The notes: generated by a model from the letters alone, not told the origin. A stretch of DNA of 64,000 bases from Pirellulales bacterium (GCA_963738835.1 CAVTYH010000001.1:161755-225754), one strand, 5' to 3'; numbered from the stretch's first letter, positions 1-10,186 are shown. Program-made: numbers and translations.

Positions 1-98
1 GCGCCCGGCCCTAGGCGCTAGAAACGTGAGGTACAGTTGGTGGAACAGTTTTCGCAACCGTCCCAAAGCCCCAAGGCTTTCCAGTCTTTCCGAGGTGC

Positions 99-126
99 TT
101 GACAGCCGGTTGATGAGTGCTAACCT
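99..126 (+). promoter_or_regulatory. sigma70-type promoter of the Cys-rich protein gene
   Basis: TTGACA (99-104), 16-nt spacer, TGcTAACCT extended -10 (118-126). Confidence 0.55.
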
Positions 127-338
127 AGCGTCCTAGCCTAGCTATTCGCGTTTGTTTGCGTAATCGGTAAAGCTTAAACAGGGCTAACTAAGCCGTTTAA
201 GCCGACAGACGCGATCAGCATAGGACCTAGGATTTTGGTTCCTCGCTTGGCGGCCGTCCCAAGCGGGGGCAAACGTCGGACGGCACCGTTGTGAGTTTGT
301 TACGCCAAGGTACCTGTTTTTTGTTGGAGGATTCGAGG

Positions 339-725
339 ATGAACCGTACTTTAATTCTGGGCATCGCGATGTTCCTCGCGATCGTCGGCATCGCCCTTGT
401 GGGCGGTGAAAAGGTGGCCGTCGCCGGTCACGGCTGCCACGGTTGCTGCTGCGGCGGCGACTGCTGCGGTGGTGGTGGATGCTGTGGTGGCGACTGCTGC
501 TGCGGTGGATGCCATTGCCATGGTGGCTTGTTCCATCATCATCGTTGCCACGGCTGCTGCTGTGGTGGTTCGAGCTGCTGTGGTGGTTCGAGCTGCTGTG
601 GTGGTGAGGCCGCTCCGGCCGCCGGTGGCGACAAGGGCGCTGCCCCTCCGCCGCCAGCCCCCATGACGTCGATCCAGAGCGATCGCGCTCCGTTCGCGTT
701 CTCGACGGTTAGCTTCCGTCGATAG
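339..725 (+). CDS. secreted Cys/Gly/His-rich small protein
   Basis: GGAGG RBS upstream; N-terminal hydrophobic signal; 21 Cys in CC/CCC-GG repeats; Pro/Ala linker; followed by a terminator. Confidence 0.8.
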   Translation: MNRTLILGIAMFLAIVGIALVGGEKVAVAGHGCHGCCCGGDCCGGGGCCGGDCCCGGCHCHGGLFHHHRCHGCCCGGSSCCGGSSCCGGEAAPAAGGDKGAAPPPPAPMTSIQSDRAPFAFSTVSFRR

Positions 726-786
726 TTCTCGGCGAACTGGCCGGTGCATGCCCTGTGTGCCGGCCACGCCAATGAGATCATAAAGG

Positions 787-818
787 CCGGGTCCCGTTTG
801 TCGGGACCCGGTTTTTTT
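787..818 (+). terminator. intrinsic terminator
   Basis: CCGGGTCCCG/CGGGACCCGG 10-bp perfect stem followed by T7. Confidence 0.85.
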
Positions 819-1001
819 GTTGCGCGGGCAAAAACCACTCTGCCTACCGTCCGTTCCAGACATTTGGTGCATTCTTGCCGCCACCGGCCGTGGGCCTGGT
901 CGGTGTAACATCCTCCCGCCGGCCACGCTCTTTATCGTATACGGGCGAACGATGTGTTCGCCTGAAAACGATAACAGCTCCCATTTATGGAGGATTGCGT
1001 C

Positions 1002-1472
1002 ATGAAACGGTTTCATAAGATTGCTTTGTCGGTGGTGTTTGCTTTCGGTGTTGCACTGGTACTGGCTCCCTTGACCGCCGAAGCGAAGAGCAGCGGCTCG
1101 AAGGGCTCGTGCGGCAAGTCGTTCAACTGTTGCAAGAATTACTGCCAGAGCTATTGCGGCAGCTCGTGCTACAAGAACTACTGCTACGATTATTGCTGCC
1201 CCAGCTACTGCTACCCGACTTGTTGCTCGTCGTACTGCTGCCCGACCTACTGCGAACCCGTGGTCGTCGAGAAGGTGATTGTCGAACCCCAGGTGGTTTG
1301 CCAACCGACGTACTGCACGCCGACCTACTGCACTCCCACGTGCTACACCCCCAGCTACTGCTCGAACTATTGCTCCAACTACTGCTACCCGTTCTGCGAT
1401 TCTTGGAAGGGCTGCTTCCATAACAGTTGCGGCAGCAAGATGATTCACACCAACTTCAAGAAAAGCAAGTAG
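1002..1472 (+). CDS. secreted Cys/Tyr/Pro-rich repetitive protein
   Basis: GGAGG RBS; signal peptide ending AEA; 25 Cys and 17 Tyr in xYC/PTYC repeats. Confidence 0.8.
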   Translation: MKRFHKIALSVVFAFGVALVLAPLTAEAKSSGSKGSCGKSFNCCKNYCQSYCGSSCYKNYCYDYCCPSYCYPTCCSSYCCPTYCEPVVVEKVIVEPQVVCQPTYCTPTYCTPTCYTPSYCSNYCSNYCYPFCDSWKGCFHNSCGSKMIHTNFKKSK

Positions 1473-1660
1473 TCCGACGTTTAACGAGTCGTGTAACAAT
1501 CGTTCTTCGGCTGAATCCGCGAAATATCCCTGTGATGCGGTGGCCCGATAGAAACCATGTTCACACTCGATCTCTCGTTCGCTTTGACGCCGCTGCCGGA
1601 GGTTTTCTTTCGGCAGCGGCGATTTTGTTTTGTAATCGCGCTGTGAACGGGCGCTCGGCG

Positions 1661-1753
1661 AATGCAAAATGCAAAGTGAAGTAGGTAGAATGAAGGCAGC
1701 AGTTTTTGCCTTCAGTTGTTCGTTCTGCCGTCTGCCTTCTGCTTTCAGCCTTT
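1661..1753. repeat. short-period (7-nt) tandem-arm hairpin repeat
   Basis: AATGCAA units and GAAGGCAG on the left; CTGCCTT-like units on the right. Confidence 0.55.
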
Positions 1754-1757
1754 CCTC

Positions 1758-3644
1758 ATGGCCGATCTCATTGCCCAAGGCCCTGAATTCTCGCAGCGTT
1801 GGCGACGCAGTTTGCCGACCGACAAGTCGGTCACCGTCGGCCGCCAATCGGGAGTTTGGTCGACGCCCTGGGACGATCACATCTCGCGCCAGCATGTCCA
1901 GATAACTTGGAACGGCACACGACTGCTCGTCGAGAGAATGCCGGCGGCGCGCAATCCTGTGTTTGCCCACGGTAAGGCGGAAACCACTTTCAAGATCGCG
2001 CCGGGCGAACACTTCGTCATCGGCAACACCACGTTTACGCTCTCGAGCGAAAAGATGCAGGTAACGCTCGACGCCCCGCATCCCGATCGAGAGCAAATCT
2101 TCAGCGCGGCCGAATTGCAGCAGGTCTCGTTTCGCAATGCTCATCAGCGCATCGAGCTGTTGAGCCGCTTGCCGGAAGTCATCAAAAATGCGGCCAGCGA
2201 AAACGAATTGTTCGTGCGGCTGGTCAACTTGCTGCTGGCCGGCGTGCCACAGGCCGATGCCGCGGCCCTCGTGGCGGTCGATATTAGCAGTGGGTGGCTG
2301 GGGTCGAGTGCCGCCGAGCCCCCAGGTGTTGACTCGCTGGGGGCTCCCGTTGGTCGACCCCAGCCACCCGACGATGCTATTTCTGCTTCCAACCCCAGCC
2401 ACGCAGCCACTACCCCGTCCGTTCGTGTCCTGCATTGGGATCGCCGCCGTCTGGCCGGAACCGCATTTCAGCCTAGCCAGCGTTTGATCCAGCAAAGCCT
2501 CGCCAAGCACGAAACCGTGCTGCACACCTGGACCGGTTCGCAGGCTAAAGATTACACCGAATCGGAAAGCATCGATTGGGCCTACTGCACGCCGCTGCCC
2601 GGCGATGCTTGCCGCGGCTGGGCGCTGTACGTGGCGGGCCGATTCGGTTTCAGCGCCGGGCGATTCAGGACATTCCGACGCTTCCGATTTGCGCGACGAC
2701 ATTAAGTTCACCGAAATGGCCGCCGCCACGCTCAGCAGCTTGCGCGAGCTGAATCGACTTGGCCGCCAGCAGGCCGGCCTCAGCCAGTTCTTTGCTCCCA
2801 TCGTGATGGAAGCGCTGGCCACGGACGATCCCGAGCGGGTTCTGGCGCGCGCGAAACCGAAGTCGCCGTGCTGTTTTGCGACCTCCGCGGTTTCTCGCGC
2901 ACCAGCGAACGCAGCGCCAGCGATTTGCTGGGCCTCTTGGAACGCGTCAGCAAAGCGCTCGGCGTGATGACGCACCAGATTCTCGATCACGGCGGCGTGG
3001 TGGGTGATTTTCAAGGCGACGCCGCCATGGGCTTCTGGGGTTGGCCGCTGCCGCAGAGCGATGCTTCGTACCGGGCCGCCCAGGCCGCGCTGGGCATTCG
3101 CGCCCAGTTCGAAGCGGCAGCCATGCAGCCCGAGCATCCGCTGGCCGATTTCCGCGTCGGCATTGGCGTTGCCACCGGTCGTGCCGTCGCCGGCAAAATT
3201 GGCACTGCCGATCACGTGAAAGTCACCGTGTTCGGTCCGGTCGTGAATCTGGCGGCGCGGCTGGAATCGATGACCCGCTTTGTGAACGCTTCGATTTTGC
3301 TCGATCCCGCCACGGCCAAAATTTTGCGCCAGCGGATGCCGCCGGAGTTGGGCCGCCTTCGCCGAGTGGCCATCGTGCGGCCTTACGGATTGAAATCGGC
3401 CGTGGAAATCAGCGAGCTCTTGCCACCGCAGCACGAATACTCTGAACTGACCGACGAAAACCTGCGCGATTACGAAGCCGCCCTCGATGCGTTCATCGCC
3501 GGCCAGTGGTCGCAAACTCTCGACCTCTTGCACCGCGTGCCCGCCGAAGACCGCGTGAAAGATTTCCTGACCGTTTTCATCGCCCAACACCACCGCACCC
3601 CGCCCGCCAACTGGGACGGCGTGGTGGTGCTGGAATCGAAGTGA
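1758..3644 (+). CDS. FHA + GAF-like + class III adenylate/guanylate cyclase, split by two frameshifts (near 2650 and 2850)
   Basis: FHA motifs VGR and ISRQH; cyclase motifs LFCDLRGFS, FQGDAAM, FGPVVNLAARLE; ORFs 1716-2705, 2605-2967 and 2868-3644 join. Confidence 0.85.
2292..2369. repeat. 78-bp palindromic element in-frame inside the cyclase gene
   Basis: 16-bp perfect outer inverted repeat GGGTGGCTGGGGTCGA/TCGACCCCAGCCACCC plus 10-bp inner GAGCCCCCAG/CTGGGGGCTC. Confidence 0.85.
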
Positions 3645-3649
3645 CATCG

Positions 3650-3737
3650 GGTCCGTTGTCCGTGGTCCGTAGTCCGTTGCAGTCAAGAACAGGCCGTCTC
3701 TCGTCAACAACTGACAACGGACCACGGACCACGGACA
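3650..3737. repeat. heptamer tandem-arm hairpin repeat
   Basis: (GTCCGTN)x4 then the complementary ACAACTG ACAACGG ACCACGG ACCACGG AC. Confidence 0.8.
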
Positions 3738-3744
3738 CGCGTCA

Positions 3745-4250
3745 ACAGACGCGCACGCACAAAAATAAAAATCGAGGCGGCGATGTTTGGAAAACGAGTC
3801 TGGAAAACTAGGCATTTTCGCAAAACATCGCCGCCTCATTGCCGCTTTGTAAATTGCAAGTCGATTGCACATTGTCATTTCTCTCGTAATTTCCCGAGCC
3901 GATTTGTACGAGCGCTGTGCCTGCCCGAGGCGACATACCCGGCCGCGAAACTCGGGAGGTCTCGCTTGTCTTGCGAGTCCTGAAGTGCAAGCTCTCTTGG
4001 CAATTCCCAGTGCCGCTCGGCAAGCGGCACCTACCGTTTGCCGAGTTTGCAATCGCCTTCTTGCATCATCGCGACCGCGGACAGACGCACGCAGCGAAAA
4101 AAGTCCGAAATCGAGGGTAAAGTGTTGGAAGAAAAAGCCTGGAAAATAAGGCGAATTTTCAAAACACTTTACCCTGACTTTACCCGCGCCAGATGCAAGT
4201 CGATTGCAAAATAATTCTTTGCTCGTAAATTTCCGCGTCGGCTTGCATCG
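3745..4250. repeat. two degenerate copies of a structured ~140-165 bp unit, offset 339 bp
   Basis: shared AAATCGAGG, CTGGAAAA, CAAAACA, TGCAAGTCGATTGCA and CTCGTAA at identical spacing; 15-bp and 13-bp perfect stems. Confidence 0.85.
4010..4045 (-). repeat. GTAG-type REP-like hairpin
   Basis: minus strand reads GGTAGGTGCCGCT-TGCCG-AGCGGCAC. Confidence 0.6.
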
Positions 4251-4511
4251 GTCGATTGCCTCTCCGATGTCAAAGATCGCTTCGGGCTGCCGACCGTACC
4301 TGCCTGCAGAACCCGTCGCAGTTCCAGTCGAAGATTATAGTGTACATAGGTATCAATTTTCAACCGGCGTTTTGGGCCAACCCAATTTTTAACCGCAGAG
4401 TGCGCAGAGAGGCAATCCGGCAAATCAGACGTTTGCAAAGCGACCGACGAAAGTTCGCCGGCTTCTATCCCGGAGGGATGTCAGCGCGGCACACAAGATT
4501 TAATCGTTCGT

Positions 4512-5696
4512 TCAGGGCAATTGGAAAGCTAGATTGCCGCTCGCATCCCAGGTTTCAATCGCGCATTTGGTCAGCGATTTGCGGAGTTGGACCGCCGCCG
4601 CCTCGGAAATGTGCGGTCCGACGCTAAGAGATTCCAAATTCACCAGCGGAGTTAGTTTCAGCAGACCTGCATCGGTGACAGGCGTGGCATGAATATCGAG
4701 GCGGCGCAGCGACTTGATTTTGGCCACCTCCTGGATATCGGCATCAGAGATTACCGAATTGTTCAATATGAGAATTTGGAGATTGGTTAGCGCCGCCAGA
4801 GCAGACAAGTTTCGGTCGCCGTTGCCTACGACTTGGAGTTGAAGTGTCTTCAAGTTTTTCAACGTGGCTACATGTCCCAGTCCAGCGGGCGAAATCGGCG
4901 ACGCACCCAACGCCAAATAACGCAGCTTGGCGAGACCACTCAAGTATTCAAGTCCATCGTCATTGGCGATGATGTCTGGAAGTTGCAACTCCTCCAGGTT
5001 TGTCAACCGTGACAGGTGCCTGAGGCCGTCGGTGTCGATCGTTGGACCTGCTACAAAAAAAAGTCGCTTCAGGTTTGAATTTCCCGAAATGTGTTTCAGA
5101 CCGTCGGCCGTGATGTTAGTTCGGATAATTTGCAGATATTGCAGAGCGGGCAACTTACCGAGCGATTGCAGTGTGGCGTCTGAAACGGTTGCGCCCGACA
5201 AGATCAACACGGCCAGATCTGGATTTGAATTGAAATAAGCCAGTCCTTCCGCGGTTACGCTCGTGTCTTGGAGGGCCAAAGAGTGGAGCTTTTGAATACC
5301 GGCGAGTTTCGCCGCACCGGCGTCGGTGATCCCGCGCCCACTTATAGCGACATCCTGTAATTTGGGCAGTTCGAGAAGCTGAGCTAAATCGCGGTCGGTC
5401 ATCGTGCTGGAGGCATAGCCGTTCACAGCCGCCACCGACGAAAATGCATCGTCGCCAATAATCCAGCGCAGCGGTTTCCACCCATAAGGCGATCGATCGG
5501 CAGCAGACTTGCCTTCAGCAATTTGCCAATCGTAGTAAATGGTGCAGCCCAGCGCCTGAAGCTGCGCTACGATCTGTCGTTGGTGATGAATTCGAACCAG
5601 CGTGCTCGTCAGCCAGCCGAAAAACACGCCAAGAATGGCCGTGGCGATCAGCAAAGTTCGCAATTTGAAACGTGGCCGCCAGTTCATAGCAAACAT
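4512..5696 (-). CDS. membrane-anchored leucine-rich-repeat protein, planctomycete type
   Basis: N-terminal RFKLRTLL + TM helix; repeated 24-aa LxxLxLxxTxvTDaGL units. Confidence 0.85.
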   Translation of the reverse strand: MFAMNWRPRFKLRTLLIATAILGVFFGWLTSTLVRIHHQRQIVAQLQALGCTIYYDWQIAEGKSAADRSPYGWKPLRWIIGDDAFSSVAAVNGYASSTMTDRDLAQLLELPKLQDVAISGRGITDAGAAKLAGIQKLHSLALQDTSVTAEGLAYFNSNPDLAVLILSGATVSDATLQSLGKLPALQYLQIIRTNITADGLKHISGNSNLKRLFFVAGPTIDTDGLRHLSRLTNLEELQLPDIIANDDGLEYLSGLAKLRYLALGASPISPAGLGHVATLKNLKTLQLQVVGNGDRNLSALAALTNLQILILNNSVISDADIQEVAKIKSLRRLDIHATPVTDAGLLKLTPLVNLESLSVGPHISEAAAVQLRKSLTKCAIETWDASGNLAFQLP

Positions 5697-5765
5697 TCTA
5701 ACCCACGCACCAACAGTAAACGATGCAGAAGGCTATCGGCGGGTGGCATGCCCACGGCACGCAGC

Positions 5766-5806
5766 GTAGCCCAGTCTCTCCGAGACTGGCAAGCGAGTTT
5801 CGGAGC
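5766..5806. repeat. GTAG REP-like element, CAGTCTCTCCGAGACTG family
   Basis: GTAGCCCAGTCTCTCCGAGACTGG; related copies at 18181 and 18586. Confidence 0.7.
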
Positions 5807-5879
5807 GATTCGCGCACAGTATCCAGGTCTCGGATCGAAAACCGCGGTTGGGCGATGATCAGTTAAATACTGTCACGGG

Positions 5880-7184
5880 TCAATGAGCGGCATTTGTTTC
5901 CAGCCCGGCCCGTTCGACAACGGCCGTGTTGTTGGCCTTGTCTGTTTCGGCGACGGTGTTCATCAAGTCGACAGCCACGAACAACCGGGTGAAGGGGGTC
6001 GATCGACCATCGGCCCCGTCCATCTTCAAAGCCGCTTGCGGCAACCGCAGGGTGACTTCTCCTGATTGGCCGGCGGCCAGCGATTTCACCTCGACCACCC
6101 CCCGCGGTGCATCGGCAGATAACTTGTCATCGATACCCGCCAGCACGCCCACTTGGAATCTAGCTGCGGCGTCGGTGCCTTGGTTACGGAACTTCACGGT
6201 GTAAGCAGGTCCAGCCACCAACGTGGCGGGGGACGCCAGTTGAATGTCTTCCAGCACCAGATCGGCGGCGCTGGCGATAACCGGTTTTGCAGTGGTGGTT
6301 ACTATGGAGTTAGTCGCTGGGATCGGTCCTGTACTGCCGACGGTCGGGTCGCCCATGCCAACCACCGGTACGCTGCTGGACGTGATCACTTGCCCGGATG
6401 GAAATTGATTGATTGGCCCGTTATTGATTCGCCCAGTAATAATAGGCACTGTGCCGCCACCAGAGGTTTTCCCACTTCCGCCGGTGCCGCCTGCGTTGCC
6501 GGCCGTGGCGGCCTTGAGGTCCGCATCGGCCTTGTCCTTGGCGGCCGTGGAAGCGTTAACTTTCGCGATGGCGGCGTTGTTACTGGCATTGTATAGACCA
6601 ACCCCTACACCAGCGTTTTCGACCGCCTTTTGCGCGCTCTGGACGGCCGCCAAATTTTCGGGGGTCGGGGATTTCGCATATGCAGTACTCGCGGCATCGG
6701 ATTTAGCAAACGCCTGGTCATACTTCGCTTGCGCGCTTCCGACTTGCCCCCGGGCGACCGACGCGGCGTTCTGGGCGTCAACGTAGGCCTTGTCGGCGGC
6801 GGCCTTGGCCGCCTGGGCGTCCATCACAGCCTTGGAGTCGACCTTCTTGTCCGCTTTCTTGGAGACACCTTTGTCGTTATTGAGCTTTTGCAGAGGCGTA
6901 TCCGTTTTCTTGGACAGGCCTTCCTTTAATCCCGCGGTCGGGTTGAGAGGCGCCGGGTCAACTTTCACTGGTTTGTCTTGGTGCTTATCTTGTTTGTCGT
7001 TTTGTTTGTCTTGGTGCTTGTCCTGACCGCTCGTTTGACTATTGCCCTGATTGTTCCCTTGATTGTTGCTTCCTCGGTTGTTGCTTTGATTGTTGTTGCC
7101 TTGGTGCTTCGGATCTGCTTGAGTCGAGCCGCCAATCACCAGAGCTAGACCGAGCGCGCCGACCATCCACGTAAACCGTTGCAT
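5880..7184 (-). CDS. secreted protein with low-complexity N-terminus and C-terminal CARDB-like Ig domain
   Basis: signal MQRFTWMVG..TQA; N/Q-rich and Ala-rich regions; ADLVL..VKFRNQG..AVDLMNTVAETDKANN. Confidence 0.75.
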   Translation of the reverse strand: MQRFTWMVGALGLALVIGGSTQADPKHQGNNNQSNNRGSNNQGNNQGNSQTSGQDKHQDKQNDKQDKHQDKPVKVDPAPLNPTAGLKEGLSKKTDTPLQKLNNDKGVSKKADKKVDSKAVMDAQAAKAAADKAYVDAQNAASVARGQVGSAQAKYDQAFAKSDAASTAYAKSPTPENLAAVQSAQKAVENAGVGVGLYNASNNAAIAKVNASTAAKDKADADLKAATAGNAGGTGGSGKTSGGGTVPIITGRINNGPINQFPSGQVITSSSVPVVGMGDPTVGSTGPIPATNSIVTTTAKPVIASAADLVLEDIQLASPATLVAGPAYTVKFRNQGTDAAARFQVGVLAGIDDKLSADAPRGVVEVKSLAAGQSGEVTLRLPQAALKMDGADGRSTPFTRLFVAVDLMNTVAETDKANNTAVVERAGLETNAAH

Positions 7185-7446
7185 GGGAACTCCCTTTGCT
7201 GCGTGGCAGCGTTTGGTTGAAGTGGGATGGTCAGATTTGATTAGGTGACTGTCCCGGAAAGAGAGAAGAAGCGCGGGAACAGTCAGGAAAGGAAAACGGC
7301 CATCCGGCCATATGAGCAAGCTCGATTGTATGAGCGTGTCGATCGAAGTCAATGAGTTGCGAATCGCTCTGCGGCGGGGACCAATTCCAACCACTTGGTC
7401 GGTGTCCGTTTCTGACACTTGTGCAGTCAATCTTTCGCTACTCGTT

Positions 7447-7893
7447 CTACTTTGTAGGCGGTCCGGCGACGGTCCAACGGATGACGTAGTAAATCGCTGG
7501 CGTGTCGCCGATGTTTTTGACGCCATGCGGGTCGCCGCTAGCTGCGAAAATCACGGAACCCGGGCCGACGCGTTGCGGCTGGCCGTCGACTTGGGTTTCG
7601 ACGGTGCCTTCTTTGACGATCACCAACTCTTCATCCACTTGCGGACGCGGCGGGTGCGTGGCGTCGCCGGGGTTGACGGTCGAGATGTGGCACTCGAGCA
7701 TTGCGAGCATTGCGGTGCGGCCATCGAACAGTTGTCGCTTCGAGCCGTACTTGGCGGTTTGCGCTTCAATTTTATTCACGTCGAAGACGGCCGACTTGAT
7801 AACGGGCTTGGCAGGCGTCTGCGCCCAGGCGACAGCCGCCAAGGTCGTGAGCGCGGCGGCGGAAGCAATGGCCAATTCTCGGCGAGTAAACAT
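7447..7893 (-). CDS. exported cupin-domain protein
   Basis: TRRE Tat-like signal; THPP..EELVIVKEG and PHGVKN cupin motifs. Confidence 0.8.
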   Translation of the reverse strand: MFTRRELAIASAAALTTLAAVAWAQTPAKPVIKSAVFDVNKIEAQTAKYGSKRQLFDGRTAMLAMLECHISTVNPGDATHPPRPQVDEELVIVKEGTVETQVDGQPQRVGPGSVIFAASGDPHGVKNIGDTPAIYYVIRWTVAGPPTK

Positions 7894-7941
7894 TGCTACT
7901 TTCTCCCTTCAGGTCTTACATGAGTTGAAAACTGTTTCAGA

Positions 7942-7977
7942 CCCCTCACCCCAGCCCTCTCTCAAAGGGCGAGGGAG
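7942..7977. repeat. CCCTCACCCC..CTCTC..GAGGG palindromic repeat
   Basis: near-identical copy at 21575-21610. Confidence 0.75.
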
Positions 7978-7996
7978 CATGTATTGAAACAGCTTC

Positions 7997-8221
7997 TTAG
8001 CCCACCAGCCAGTGGTAAACAACGTACAAACACAGCGCCGTGCCGATGATGATCAGCCACGATTTGCGGGCCGGCCGGACGTCTTCGTCGGAGAGATACT
8101 CTTCGCAATGTGGGCAGCGCTCGGCGTCTTCGTAAATTTCAGCGCCGCAGTGCGGACAGGGGAGGGTCGGTACCGTGGAGTCGCCGAATTCGTCAAAATC
8201 AACGTCGTCGCTGGCCGGCAT
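7997..8221 (-). CDS. small zinc-ribbon membrane protein
   Basis: CPHC-x10-CPHC, acidic N-terminus, C-terminal TM helix. Confidence 0.75.
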   Translation of the reverse strand: MPASDDVDFDEFGDSTVPTLPCPHCGAEIYEDAERCPHCEEYLSDEDVRPARKSWLIIIGTALCLYVVYHWLVG

Positions 8222-8224
8222 TTT

Positions 8225-8500
8225 TCACCACGGAAACACAGAGATCACGGGAGCCAGAACACAGAGATCACGGGAGCCAGAGCAGGTGAAGGGCAATTGA
8301 GCAAAAATCTTTTTGATTGGGAAGAGGGAATCAAAACTCGCGCAGAGACAGAGACGCTGAGAAGCGCAGAGATGCAGGCCAAGATCACCCCAAGTCGCAA
8401 AGGCACGAAGAGAAAAAGAGAATTTTGATTTCTCTGCGCCTTTGCGTCTTAGCGTGAAATCAATATGCAAGCTCCGCGCACTCTGCGTCTCTGCGCGAAC
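8225..8500. repeat. cluster of 8-9-nt-period repeats, including a perfect 23-bp tandem duplication
   Basis: AACACAGAGATCACGGGAGCCAG x2 (8235-8280); CGCAGAGA and complementary TCTCTGCG arrays. Confidence 0.75.
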
Positions 8501-8539
8501 AATTTGCCGAGTGCGGATTCCAGATTGTTTGCCAGCTTG

Positions 8540-8595
8540 GTGCAGCGGCCGGGCTCGGCCCGGTGCTGAGCGCGGAGCAAGCTCCGCCGCTACAC
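8540..8595 (-). repeat. GTAG REP doublet
   Basis: reverse complement of the element at 10187-10242. Confidence 0.75.
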
Positions 8596-8622
8596 GGATG
8601 TGGTTTGCACTCTAGCCGCTGG

Positions 8623-9219
8623 CTACCGGCCACCACGCGGCGGCATTGGCGGCAGGCCGCGTTGTTTGCGGCGGTCGTCGATGAGCCGGGTGTATTCGGC
8701 ACGTTTGGCGCACGATTCCGGCGTGCCGCGATCGAGTCGGCTGCGCAGGCGGCTCAAACGCTGCTCGTCGTTCACCGCGGGTTGGCGGTTCCCCTTCTTT
8801 CCGCCGTTTTGGGCGCCCGGCGGCGCTTTTCCACCGGCCCCGGCGGCTTGCTGGCGTTTGGCGAAATCGGCGGCCCGCTTATCCATCTGATCGATATCGG
8901 CATCGAGCGCCTTGTTACGTTCGGCCGGCGACATCGTCAAAATTTGGTCGACGTGTGATTCAAATCGCTTCTCGAACACCTCGCGGCCGGCTTCGAAGAC
9001 CGCGCGGCGTGCGTCGGGCGACAGCGATTCCATCTTGGCTCGCATTTGTTCGCGCAGCGCTTGGCGATCGGCGTCTTTCAAATTGGGGTCGGCCATTTTC
9101 TGTTGCAGTTGCTGCACTTCGGCGATGGCCGGATTGCTGGAGAACCAGCCCAAGAGCCACGCGGCGGCCAGCAACAGCGCGCTGAGCATGGTTCCAATGA
9201 CGATCACGCGTTTCCACAT
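8623..9219 (-). CDS. membrane-anchored helical hypothetical protein
   Basis: N-terminal TM, charged helical body, GGAG RBS. Confidence 0.7.
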   Translation of the reverse strand: MWKRVIVIGTMLSALLLAAAWLLGWFSSNPAIAEVQQLQQKMADPNLKDADRQALREQMRAKMESLSPDARRAVFEAGREVFEKRFESHVDQILTMSPAERNKALDADIDQMDKRAADFAKRQQAAGAGGKAPPGAQNGGKKGNRQPAVNDEQRLSRLRSRLDRGTPESCAKRAEYTRLIDDRRKQRGLPPMPPRGGR

Positions 9220-9256
9220 GTTGGATCACTCCTTGCCCGGTGATTCAAAATCTGGT

Positions 9257-9339
9257 CGAAAAGTCCAAAAGTCGAAGAGTCAAAAAGTGTGATTGCAAAC
9301 TTGCAACTCCGACGCTTGGACTTTTTGACTTTTTGACCC
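9257..9339. repeat. octamer tandem-arm hairpin repeat
   Basis: GTCGAAAA/GTCCAAAA/GTCGAAGA/GTCAAAAA then complementary TTTTGACT units. Confidence 0.75.
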
Positions 9340-9348
9340 TGCTCCTCC

Positions 9349-9888
9349 TCACTCCACGTGGCAATCTAAAAACACGATGTTGCGCGAAGTTGCTCCACCC
9401 ACCGGGCCGTGGAAATCGCTGAAGTCGTACGCCACTTGCACGTAAGCGCTTTTGATCGGTTGGCCCTTGGCGTTTTGCAGCACTTCGGGGCGGGTTTTTC
9501 CAGAGAGCGTCTTTTGGGCGTACTCATAACTTAGTCCTTCCGTGGGAAAGTATTTTTCGTCGTCGGGGCAATTGAACACGGTCTGATTTTCTTCGATGAA
9601 CTTGCCAAGCACTTTGGAAATCGGCGGAATGGTGGGCGTGACGCTGGGCAGAATCGCGGCGTCAGGAAACTTGGCCCGTGGACCGTGGGCGCTCATGTAG
9701 TTTTCGAGCGCCAGCCCGACTTGCCGCAATTGCGATTGGCACTGCGTGCGGCGTGCAGTTTCGCGCGCCCGTTGCACGGCCGGCATGAGCAACGCGATGA
9801 GACCGCCGATGATGGCGATGACGACCAAAAGCTCGACGAGGGTGAAGCCCTGCCGGCATTTTGCCGTTGTCGCTTGTACGTTTACCAT
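9349..9888 (-). CDS. DUF1559-type prepilin-like protein
   Basis: G|[13 protein letters not shown] methylation motif; [23 protein letters not shown]; C-terminal [10 protein letters not shown]. Confidence 0.9.
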
Positions 9889-10186
9889 TGTTATCTTTGG
9901 ATCGTCCGCGATCGGTTCTCTGCAACGGACCACGGACAAGGGACCGCAGACAGCATCTATGCGCATAGCATCTCTCCCTGCAGAAAATGATCTGCGATTT
10001 TTTTGCGCGGAAACGGAGGCAGAATGCGGCGCAGTGCCGCAACGGTGGGGGCTGGCGGGGTTAGTGTCTAGTTTCTCGCTGTGCTAGCGAGGTGCCCGGA
10101 GAAGTTCTAAAACATCGAACCCCAGGGTGAAATGAAAGTTTCGCGGAGGAAAAAATGGCGACTGGCCCTGCATCGCATTTTGCCAG

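Follow-up and report, generated by a model that had tools for sequence, protein, structure and literature searches.

The stretch of DNA examined here, to which we refer as the window, consists of 64,000 nt of a Pirellulales genome and corresponds to C1:161755-225754 in an assembly of 5.97 Mb, 12 contigs and 57% G+C. The locus of interest lies between two convergent genes, a cyclase-domain gene that ends at 3644 on the plus strand and an LRR gene that ends at 4512 on the minus strand. Between them, the stretches 3768-3906 and 4107-4245 align without gaps at an offset of 339; mean column identity in the pairwise alignment of the two stretches is 78% over 202 columns, and a repeat search returned a direct repeat of 52 nt, spacing 339, across both units. 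The features of the locus are given below, with positions counted from the first letter of the window; where no other basis is named, the feature was taken from the sequence itself.

3746-4379, minus strand: whole mosaic non-coding element, 635 bp (model R1 matches at 3746-3862 and 4084-4201; body and right end by reading against a 20-element alignment)
3746-3862, plus strand: unit 1, the outermost hairpin unit (model R1, 94.5 bits, E 6e-25; nhmmer, 88 bits)
3755-3772, minus strand: A-run on the plus strand, equivalent to a T/U-run directly after hairpin 1 on the minus strand
3774-3837, no strand assigned: hairpin 1, a 15-bp perfect outer stem continuing into an inner stem (arms 3774-3788 and 3823-3837, 100% complementary; folds)
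3778-3783, plus strand: box 0 of unit 1, X = CGGCGA
3828-3833, plus strand: box 1 of unit 1, TCGCCG, in the 3' arm of the stem
3839-3844, plus strand: box 2 of unit 1, TTGCCG, the 3'-arm repeat 11 nt downstream, with one mismatch
3855-3869, no strand assigned: near-palindromic 15-mer TGCAAGTCGATTGCA, first copy (word counts in window and genome)
3883-3889, no strand assigned: CTCGTAA motif, first copy
4084-4201, plus strand: unit 2, the inner hairpin unit (model R1, 74.3 bits, E 3e-19)
4114-4175, no strand assigned: hairpin 2, a 13-bp perfect outer stem (arms 4114-4126 and 4163-4175, 100% complementary; folds)
4117-4122, plus strand: box 0 of unit 2, X = GTAAAG
4167-4172, plus strand: box 1 of unit 2, CTTTAC
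4178-4183, plus strand: box 2 of unit 2, CTTTAC
4194-4208, no strand assigned: 15-mer TGCAAGTCGATTGCA, second copy (word counts in window and genome)
4222-4228, no strand assigned: CTCGTAA, second copy
4334-4363, minus strand: sigma-70-like promoter site TTGAAA-18-TATAAT, 11/12, aimed at both hairpins (promoter scan; homologous sites in other elements)
4370-4379, no strand assigned: TTTTGGGCCA, the recurrent right terminus of the family (sequence; 20-element alignment; right junctions)

A preliminary description of the locus had presented each unit as a six-letter box X followed by its reverse complement, a 5-nt word and the reverse complement again. Its coordinates and its spacers of 44, 5, 10 and 13 nt all match the sequence (the 5-nt word is CCTCA in one unit and CCTGA in the other), and we were able to reproduce both the perfect stems of 15 bp and 13 bp and, 11 nt further on, the second copy of the 3' arm. 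Two occurrences of the 15-mer TGCAAGTCGATTGCA lie in the window, where 0.29 are expected with up to 2 mismatches, at least two being reached in 4 of 100 shuffles, and its only exact matches in the 5.97-Mb genome are the two window sites. Both strands of the window units fold better than shuffled sequence (z of -3.7 to -5.6), with minus-strand folds of -41.3 and -41.9 kcal/mol for 116 nt. Given the direct repeat, the 15-mer and the folding statistics, we consider that the unit pair lies beyond chance.

A 14-nt word at 4046-4059, between the units, is 93% complementary to the near-palindromic 15-mer (with 4197-4210 and 3858-3869); because of this third related word, a long transcript could allow pairing between the spacer and either module. 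Motifs akin to CTCGTAA, of the type CTCG(G/T) followed by A-rich sequence, were found by reading in hairpin loops and downstream of other copies. Directly after the cyclase stop codon, at 3648-3739, lies a long inverted repeat of GTCCGTG-type heptamers, with 41-nt arms that are 80% complementary and inner 23-nt arms that are 96% complementary; arrays of such heptamers also adjoin many outer units elsewhere in the genome. The cyclase-domain gene (1716-3644, plus strand) is a single open frame of 590-592 aa in two related genomes, while the window copy has an in-frame stop at 2703-2705 and an Arg-rich, apparently out-of-frame stretch around 2640-2870, and may be a frameshifted gene or an assembly error. 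On the minus strand, an open frame of 1233 aa (351-4052) runs across the plus-strand genes and unit 1; it has no Pfam match and is most likely a spurious antisense frame. A scan of positions 1-10000 of the window for tRNA and tmRNA found none.

The preliminary description had allowed for there being no further copies of the unit. Sought genome-wide, with BLAST and then with an nhmmer profile search, 116 non-overlapping units were found at 65 loci, which comprise 37 doublets, 7 triplets and 21 singles, with spacings of 119-381 nt. Units within a locus are always co-oriented (mixed orientation in 0 of 44 multi-unit loci), and since this holds for all 37 doublets and 7 triplets, two collinear units are the standard family layout and not a peculiarity of the window. 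The two window units have a private downstream part in common, yet their boxes are typical of different sub-lineages. According to crude codon-model gene calls, 59 of the 65 loci are intergenic and their orientation relative to flanking genes is unbiased (38/27 upstream, 32/33 downstream). Within 4 kb of the 65 loci no enzyme family recurs, in line with a non-autonomous element; the recurrent neighbours belong to common paralog families only, e.g. LRR proteins and ABC ATPases. With 116 units and no enzyme gene recurring beside the loci, the suggestion that the units belong to an unnamed non-autonomous repeat family is borne out. A second repeat family, of the hairpin type ctccctc...gggagagggccggggtgaggg, is widespread beside units (L001 1190-1260 and many other loci), and words like this hairpin are seemingly in frame in a protein, as two GRGQGEG stretches in the ORF at L001 2-997, upstream of the element there.

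Pairing among the boxes was analysed in 62 distinct aligned copies (60 loci plus the two window units) drawn from 77 distinct box combinations, against shuffle controls, which leave kinship among copies in place, and slid-partner controls, which do so too. Box 0 with box 1 and the inner stem has 76.1% of cells paired (68.8 +/- 0.8 shuffled; slid partners 42-51%) and a covariation score of 0.274 (0.167 shuffled), and box 0 with box 2 has 70.6% of cells paired (59.0 +/- 1.1 shuffled; slid partners 32-54%) and a covariation score of 0.325 (0.145 shuffled); in each register the observed score was reached by 0 of 500 shuffles. Single pairs show several compensated states, e.g. columns 40/103, with CG 33 times and AU 26 times. 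It follows from the shuffles that X is complementary to either downstream box above chance, as had been proposed. We also asked how often a whole copy obeys the rule, using 72 distinct gap-free triples of 8-nt cores (one mismatch and G.U allowed; copies with a gapped box dropped), with the following result:

Observed triples (n = 72): both boxes fit, 16; box 1 only, 18; box 2 only, 7; neither, 31
Box 0 permuted: both boxes fit, 3.7; box 1 only, 8.4; box 2 only, 3.1; neither, 56.8

Independent variation of the three boxes, which the preliminary description had named as an argument against itself, holds for a large minority of copies; over the aligned copies as a whole, the boxes covary above the shuffle and slide controls. 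The three-box rule is a real property of the family, but a loose one; the 31 of 72 triples in which neither box fits imply either a weak constraint or a large number of dead copies. One sizeable subfamily has a box 0 (GGGTAAAG) that is perfectly complementary to box 2 and fits box 1 only via G.U pairs, and in a second genome that carries the family, G010, the two downstream words change places between copies. RNAalifold gave no consensus structure (0 pairs) on the 62-copy alignment.

There are 43 distinct 8-nt box-0 cores in the family, and the X variants form a continuum of 1-3-nt steps. In 332 copy pairs at least 85% identical outside the boxes, per-site differences amount to 0.193, 0.201 and 0.142 in boxes 0, 1 and 2 and to 0.093 outside the boxes. 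The proposal that the architecture is kept while the box varies is therefore upheld by the 43 cores and by boxes about twice as divergent as the rest. The further proposal that X is an address, conferring specificity on a recombinase or transposase that reads it, is not supported, given the continuum of 1-3-nt steps and the 31 of 72 triples without a fit; most likely, X is just the fast-changing middle of a hairpin stem and not a code read by an enzyme. As to how the boxes change, one copy is 97% identical to the composite copies (described below) outside the boxes, yet is changed at 4 of 8 box-0 positions and in the adjacent loop flank, and other members of the family also have its changed box. 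The pattern suggests that copies recombine at their conserved flanks. Such box shuffling accounts for the many mismatched copies, and the window units, with their shared downstream part and boxes of different sub-lineages, agree with it. Pairing must also be restored, either by selection for the hairpin or by repair templated by the folded strand.

The units form the left end of a non-coding mosaic element of 0.3-1.4 kb. In 20 elements (560 nt aligned), a conserved non-coding body, with a long hairpin that sometimes holds nested insertions, comes after the inner unit, and the body ends in a conserved sigma-70-like promoter block on the opposite strand and then the terminus TTTTGGGCCA. For 58 of the 116 units there is an antisense promoter-like site (at least 10/12) 90-650 nt downstream that is aimed at the unit; the same stretch holds a same-sense site for 7 of 116, and the 620 nt upstream hold a promoter-like site on either strand for 0 of 116. 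In the window one site was found where shuffles gave 0.4 +/- 0.6, and the promoter scan detected homologous sites in two other elements (9 and 10 of 12). On the minus strand the hairpin is directly followed by GATTTTTATTTTT. An A-run before the unit (at least 9 A in 13), which is a T-run on the other strand, is present in 86 of 116 units; by position, it is found at 42 of the 44 outermost units, at 31 of the 51 inner ones and at 13 of the 21 singles, and 14 of the inner units that lack it (1 A of 13) are near-identical copies by reading. Because both the promoter-like sites and the T-runs belong to repeated sequence, their counts do not represent independent events.

Read along the minus strand, the window element consists of the promoter-like site (4363-4334), the body, hairpin 2, whose T-run is the weaker one, a spacer that contains the private 15-mer, and hairpin 1, whose T-run is strong. 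In a predicted minus-strand RNA of 578 nt both hairpins are intact in the fold, and a stable hairpin directly before a U-run, a feature of intrinsic terminators, is found on the minus strand. A terminator scan did not call the hairpins, in the window or in two other elements, on account of its loop limit of 3-8 nt. We favor the minus strand as the one transcribed because the only promoter-like sites pointing at the hairpins do so from that strand; judged by these sequence signals, the strand read in the preliminary description is probably not the transcribed one. Small minus-strand ORFs, which in some copies end in the TAA of the GGGTAAAG box, were considered and rejected, as other box variants are without the stop and 1-nt indels break the frame. 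Frame-breaking 1-nt indels are also found in the element body, by reading of the 20-element alignment.

About 13 composite copies of up to 1.37 kb, starting exactly at the unit, are present in different genomic contexts with 92-98% identity and nested right ends. The left junctions of these 13 near-identical copies are ragged, their right termini recur and are not inverted copies of the left end, and neither terminal inverted repeats nor a target-site duplication were seen at their junctions. A covariance model found the family in its own genome and in 1 of 40 related genomes (G010, of the same family and another genus, with 25 matches) and did not find it in a same-genus genome that is 91% complete; as only 89 candidates were scored per genome, weak copies may be missed. 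A strict pattern, which may miss diverged relatives, gave one chance match, in a Bacteroidales record, among 185,579 species genomes, and the same pattern, with the same proviso on diverged relatives, gave 15 matches in metagenome contigs, likewise by chance, 0 of which fit model R1. Downstream of its cyclase ortholog, the same-genus genome has a different gene (DinB_2) and no unit; since synteny differs, this does not amount to a clean empty site. Some G010 elements (L068, L072, L074, L076 and L078) carry, about 100-130 nt past the unit, a fourth box-like word, GGGGTAA-A/G-TCGGG, which is complementary to the unit's box 1 or box 2. A conserved TGTCAAGG comes after this word, which may represent a second unit that has been truncated.

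In our reading, a single copy of a mosaic, non-coding and lineage-restricted element supplies both window units, one as its inner and the other as its outer hairpin module. The most likely role of the hairpins, to which we assign a probability of roughly 0.5, is that of a terminator-like pair of a non-coding transcript borne by the element. Under this working model the element would make its own minus-strand non-coding transcript, which in the window would start near 4327 and would be about 230 nt long if it ended after hairpin 2 and about 570 nt long if it ended after hairpin 1, reading on to hairpin 1 being possible because hairpin 2 has the weaker T-run. The hairpins would serve as terminator and 3'-end structure and would shield neighbouring genes from the element's promoter. 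X would be the variable middle of the hairpin stem, with no enzyme reading it, and the second reverse complement of X would be an 11-nt duplication of one stem arm that provides a second pairing register, so that a copy could still fold if either box fits. Copies may recombine with each other at the conserved flanks and so shuffle the boxes; selection for a stable hairpin, hairpin-templated repair or the two together would then presumably bring complementarity back. In G010, six loci were examined and none has a promoter-like site of at least 10/12, and by reading no A-run abuts the unit; the terminator reading may for this reason be specific to this genome's branch.

An alternative view is that the elements are palindromic DNA in decay, purely selfish and without a function for either the cell or the element itself, that covariation stems from shared descent and from gene conversion between arms, and that the promoter is a passenger. 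The failure of both boxes to fit in 31 of 72 triples, the lack of an RNAalifold consensus and the occurrence of the elements in a mosaic with other repeat types would all be expected on this view, as would the restriction of the family to 2 of 41 genomes, and the shuffle controls do not remove relatedness. The slid-partner controls keep relatedness, however, and they too fall far below the observed pairing. Furthermore, diverged copies retain promoter-like sites of 11-12/12, 42 of the 44 outermost units retain the T-run, and 43 box variants, many of which have matching partners, need some process that restores pairing. We consider that decay without function is unlikely.

We regard as improbable the possibility that the hairpin is a site acting at the DNA level, namely the end of a non-autonomous mobile element recognised by a trans-acting single-strand transposase or recombinase, with the variable box pairing within the DNA as in IS200/IS605 ends. 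Each unit does have one inverted copy of the box and two direct copies, the latter one helical turn apart, and there is covariation in both registers; the family has a high copy number with near-identical copies in different contexts and is patchily distributed among relatives, and searches of the genome gave 10 matches for the Y1 transposase family and 13 for tyrosine recombinases. Against this, a unit lies within 8 kb of only 3 of the 10 Y1 matches, and the four best Y1 genes (233-249 aa; three near-identical copies and one other) are flanked by their own inverted repeats, which are unlike the units. The 4 kb around the 65 loci contain no recurrent enzyme family, and there is no replication-strand bias, the orientation being concordant with GC skew at 36 loci and discordant at 29. 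The left junctions are ragged, with no target duplication or terminal inverted repeat seen, and 43 box cores could not be read by one enzyme as a protein-binding site. The idea of an enzyme address fares no better in particular, since the Y1 transposase-like genes have other flanking inverted repeats and the element body has fewer additional copies of X or its complement than are expected from permutations (4 and 2 counted, 8.8 and 9.3 permuted).

With regard to the Y1 genes themselves, one type of unit is 800 bp long and holds only a 249-aa Y1 gene (RAYT/IS200-like) between inverted repeats of about 20 bp. Its three copies in this genome (G000) are 98.5-99.4% identical and are located at C9:608020-608819, C2 about 246198-247000 and C7 about 100742-101530 (L063-L065). 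A fourth, diverged Y1 gene (L066 1438-2139) has different inverted repeats. The 800-bp units resemble the TIR-associated tyrosine transposases named in PMC3733652. A RAYT/REPIN link was rejected on the grounds that the Y1 genes carry their own flanking repeats. Two other enzyme types were set aside by reading of coordinates: the genome's 3 GIY-YIG nuclease matches include none near a unit locus, and its 13 tyrosine-recombinase matches are not enriched near loci, the nearest being about 5.5 kb away.

A regulatory RNA on the plus strand would place the variable box in yet another role. An A-rich tract, GAGG, 5-7 nt and ATG or GTG would constitute a ribosome-binding site and start codon sequestered by the hairpin, with box 2 providing a second state, and the whole would act as a translational switch for a short leader peptide. 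Box 0 on the plus strand does fall within GAGG-N5-7-ATG/GTG, with a start-like codon at the aligned position in 99 of 103 distinct copies, and an upstream gene lies on the same strand at 38 of 65 loci, making read-through possible. The plus strand is also the one toward which the box 0:box 1 helix leans as the folded strand, with 109 G.T to 61 A.C pairs, and the hairpin alone is slightly more stable there (mean -21.5 vs -19.6 kcal/mol; more stable on plus in 60 and on minus in 33 of 94 copies), although with box 2 included there is no difference in stability between strands. However, the open frame is not conserved, many copies ending after 12 codons and the frame being shifted between subfamilies; a small plus-strand ORF starting at box 0 was accordingly rejected as a candidate (2-270 codons, median 41). 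GAGG and ATG are equally explicable as parts of a palindromic stem, the same words being found on the minus strand, and neither a promoter-like site in the 620 nt upstream (0 of 116 units) nor an orientation rule relative to neighbouring genes is in evidence. We consider such a switch quite improbable. The strand evidence as a whole is mixed, with promoter-like sites and the T-run speaking for the minus strand and the G.T excess and stability for the plus strand.

Finally, it is highly improbable that the minus-strand RNA is programmable, with the tandem X boxes just upstream of the terminator as an exchangeable seed or guide, the 3' arm of the terminator as a built-in target mimic and the RNA toggling between self-paired and target-paired states, in which case each of the 43 box variants would direct the RNA to a nucleic-acid target of its own and neighbouring hairpins of an element would be maintained as orthogonal.

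Bacterial genomes commonly contain structured intergenic repeats. To our knowledge, few such families have been characterised outside the Proteobacteria, and for most of them we know of no established basis for hairpin maintenance. The present family offers a useful system in several respects: (i) it has more than 100 copies in a single genome; (ii) one segment of the stem evolves about twice as fast as the rest and still pairs with two alternative partners; and (iii) the element brings its own strong promoter-like site and a terminator-like end. It thus lends itself, as a natural system, to the question of what maintains such hairpins, be it selection, recombination between copies or self-templated repair, and it could show how mobile promoters are insulated in planctomycete genomes.

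How does the family compare with systems already known? The preliminary description had left room for a match to a described Rfam family; in a permissive search with the locus and three whole elements, no family reached its gathering threshold. The best match over a unit was suhB/mmgR on the minus strand (20.3 bits against a threshold of 41), and the three whole elements gave sub-threshold matches to microRNA precursors and one to an sRNA (whalefall-1, 18.2 bits against 37). A limited literature search found no description of such an element in Planctomycetes.

With integron attC sites and CALIN arrays the units share a structure that is kept while sequence varies and a co-oriented array. The attC core-site consensus is RYYYAAC / GTTRRRY. 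Unlike attC sites, the units have no core sites (by reading) and three boxes only, with no fourth upstream of box 0, and unlike integron arrays they have no cassette ORFs between them and no integrase recurring nearby. IS200/IS605 ends are hairpins with short flanking words in which pairing links a guide to the cleavage site, and the units are similar to them in being hairpins with short flanking words whose pairing could set specificity. They differ in having no adjacent TnpA/TnpB gene, dozens of box variants in one genome and no replication-strand bias. In common with intrinsic (Rho-independent) terminators, the units have a stable hairpin and a T/U-run directly after it, on the strand served by the promoter-like site; they depart from these in their very long stem (about 25 bp with bulges) and duplicated arm, and they are not called by a consensus scan. 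Neisseria Correia elements, ERIC and pneumococcal BOX are short, non-coding, structured intergenic repeats, some of them modular (BOX) and some with promoters or terminator action. In contrast to these MITE-like repeats, the elements here measure 0.3-1.4 kb and have hypervariable stem boxes, and neither a TIR nor a target duplication was seen.

The nearest counterparts of the family are REP/BIME/REPIN elements, together with MITE-like repeats that bear a promoter or terminator. According to PMC3733652, REPs are palindromes of 20-40 bp with a GTAG or CGTC tag at one end. REPINs consist of two inverted REPs, and the RAYT gene has the same repeats on its flanks. Like REP, BIME and REPIN-RAYT systems as they are presented in PMC3116915, PMC3337134 and PMC3733652, the present units are high-copy, lineage-specific, non-autonomous intergenic palindromic hairpins in mosaics with other motifs; in these three papers, REP/BIME hairpins are proposed to act as terminators or mRNA stabilisers. 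Unlike REPs, our units are hairpins of 62-64 nt in which one arm is duplicated, with ATCGAGG and CCTCA on their flanks and, by reading, no GTAG/CGTC tag; unlike the inverted pairs of REPINs, they are co-oriented (0 of 44 loci mixed); unlike RAYT-flanking REPs, they do not flank the Y1 genes, which have other repeats; and unlike either REPs or REPINs, the element carries a promoter-like site. The family seems not to be a new system guided by RNA or addressed by a recombinase. It is a further variety of REP/BIME/MITE-like repeats, one that fails the defining features of REPs and REPINs.
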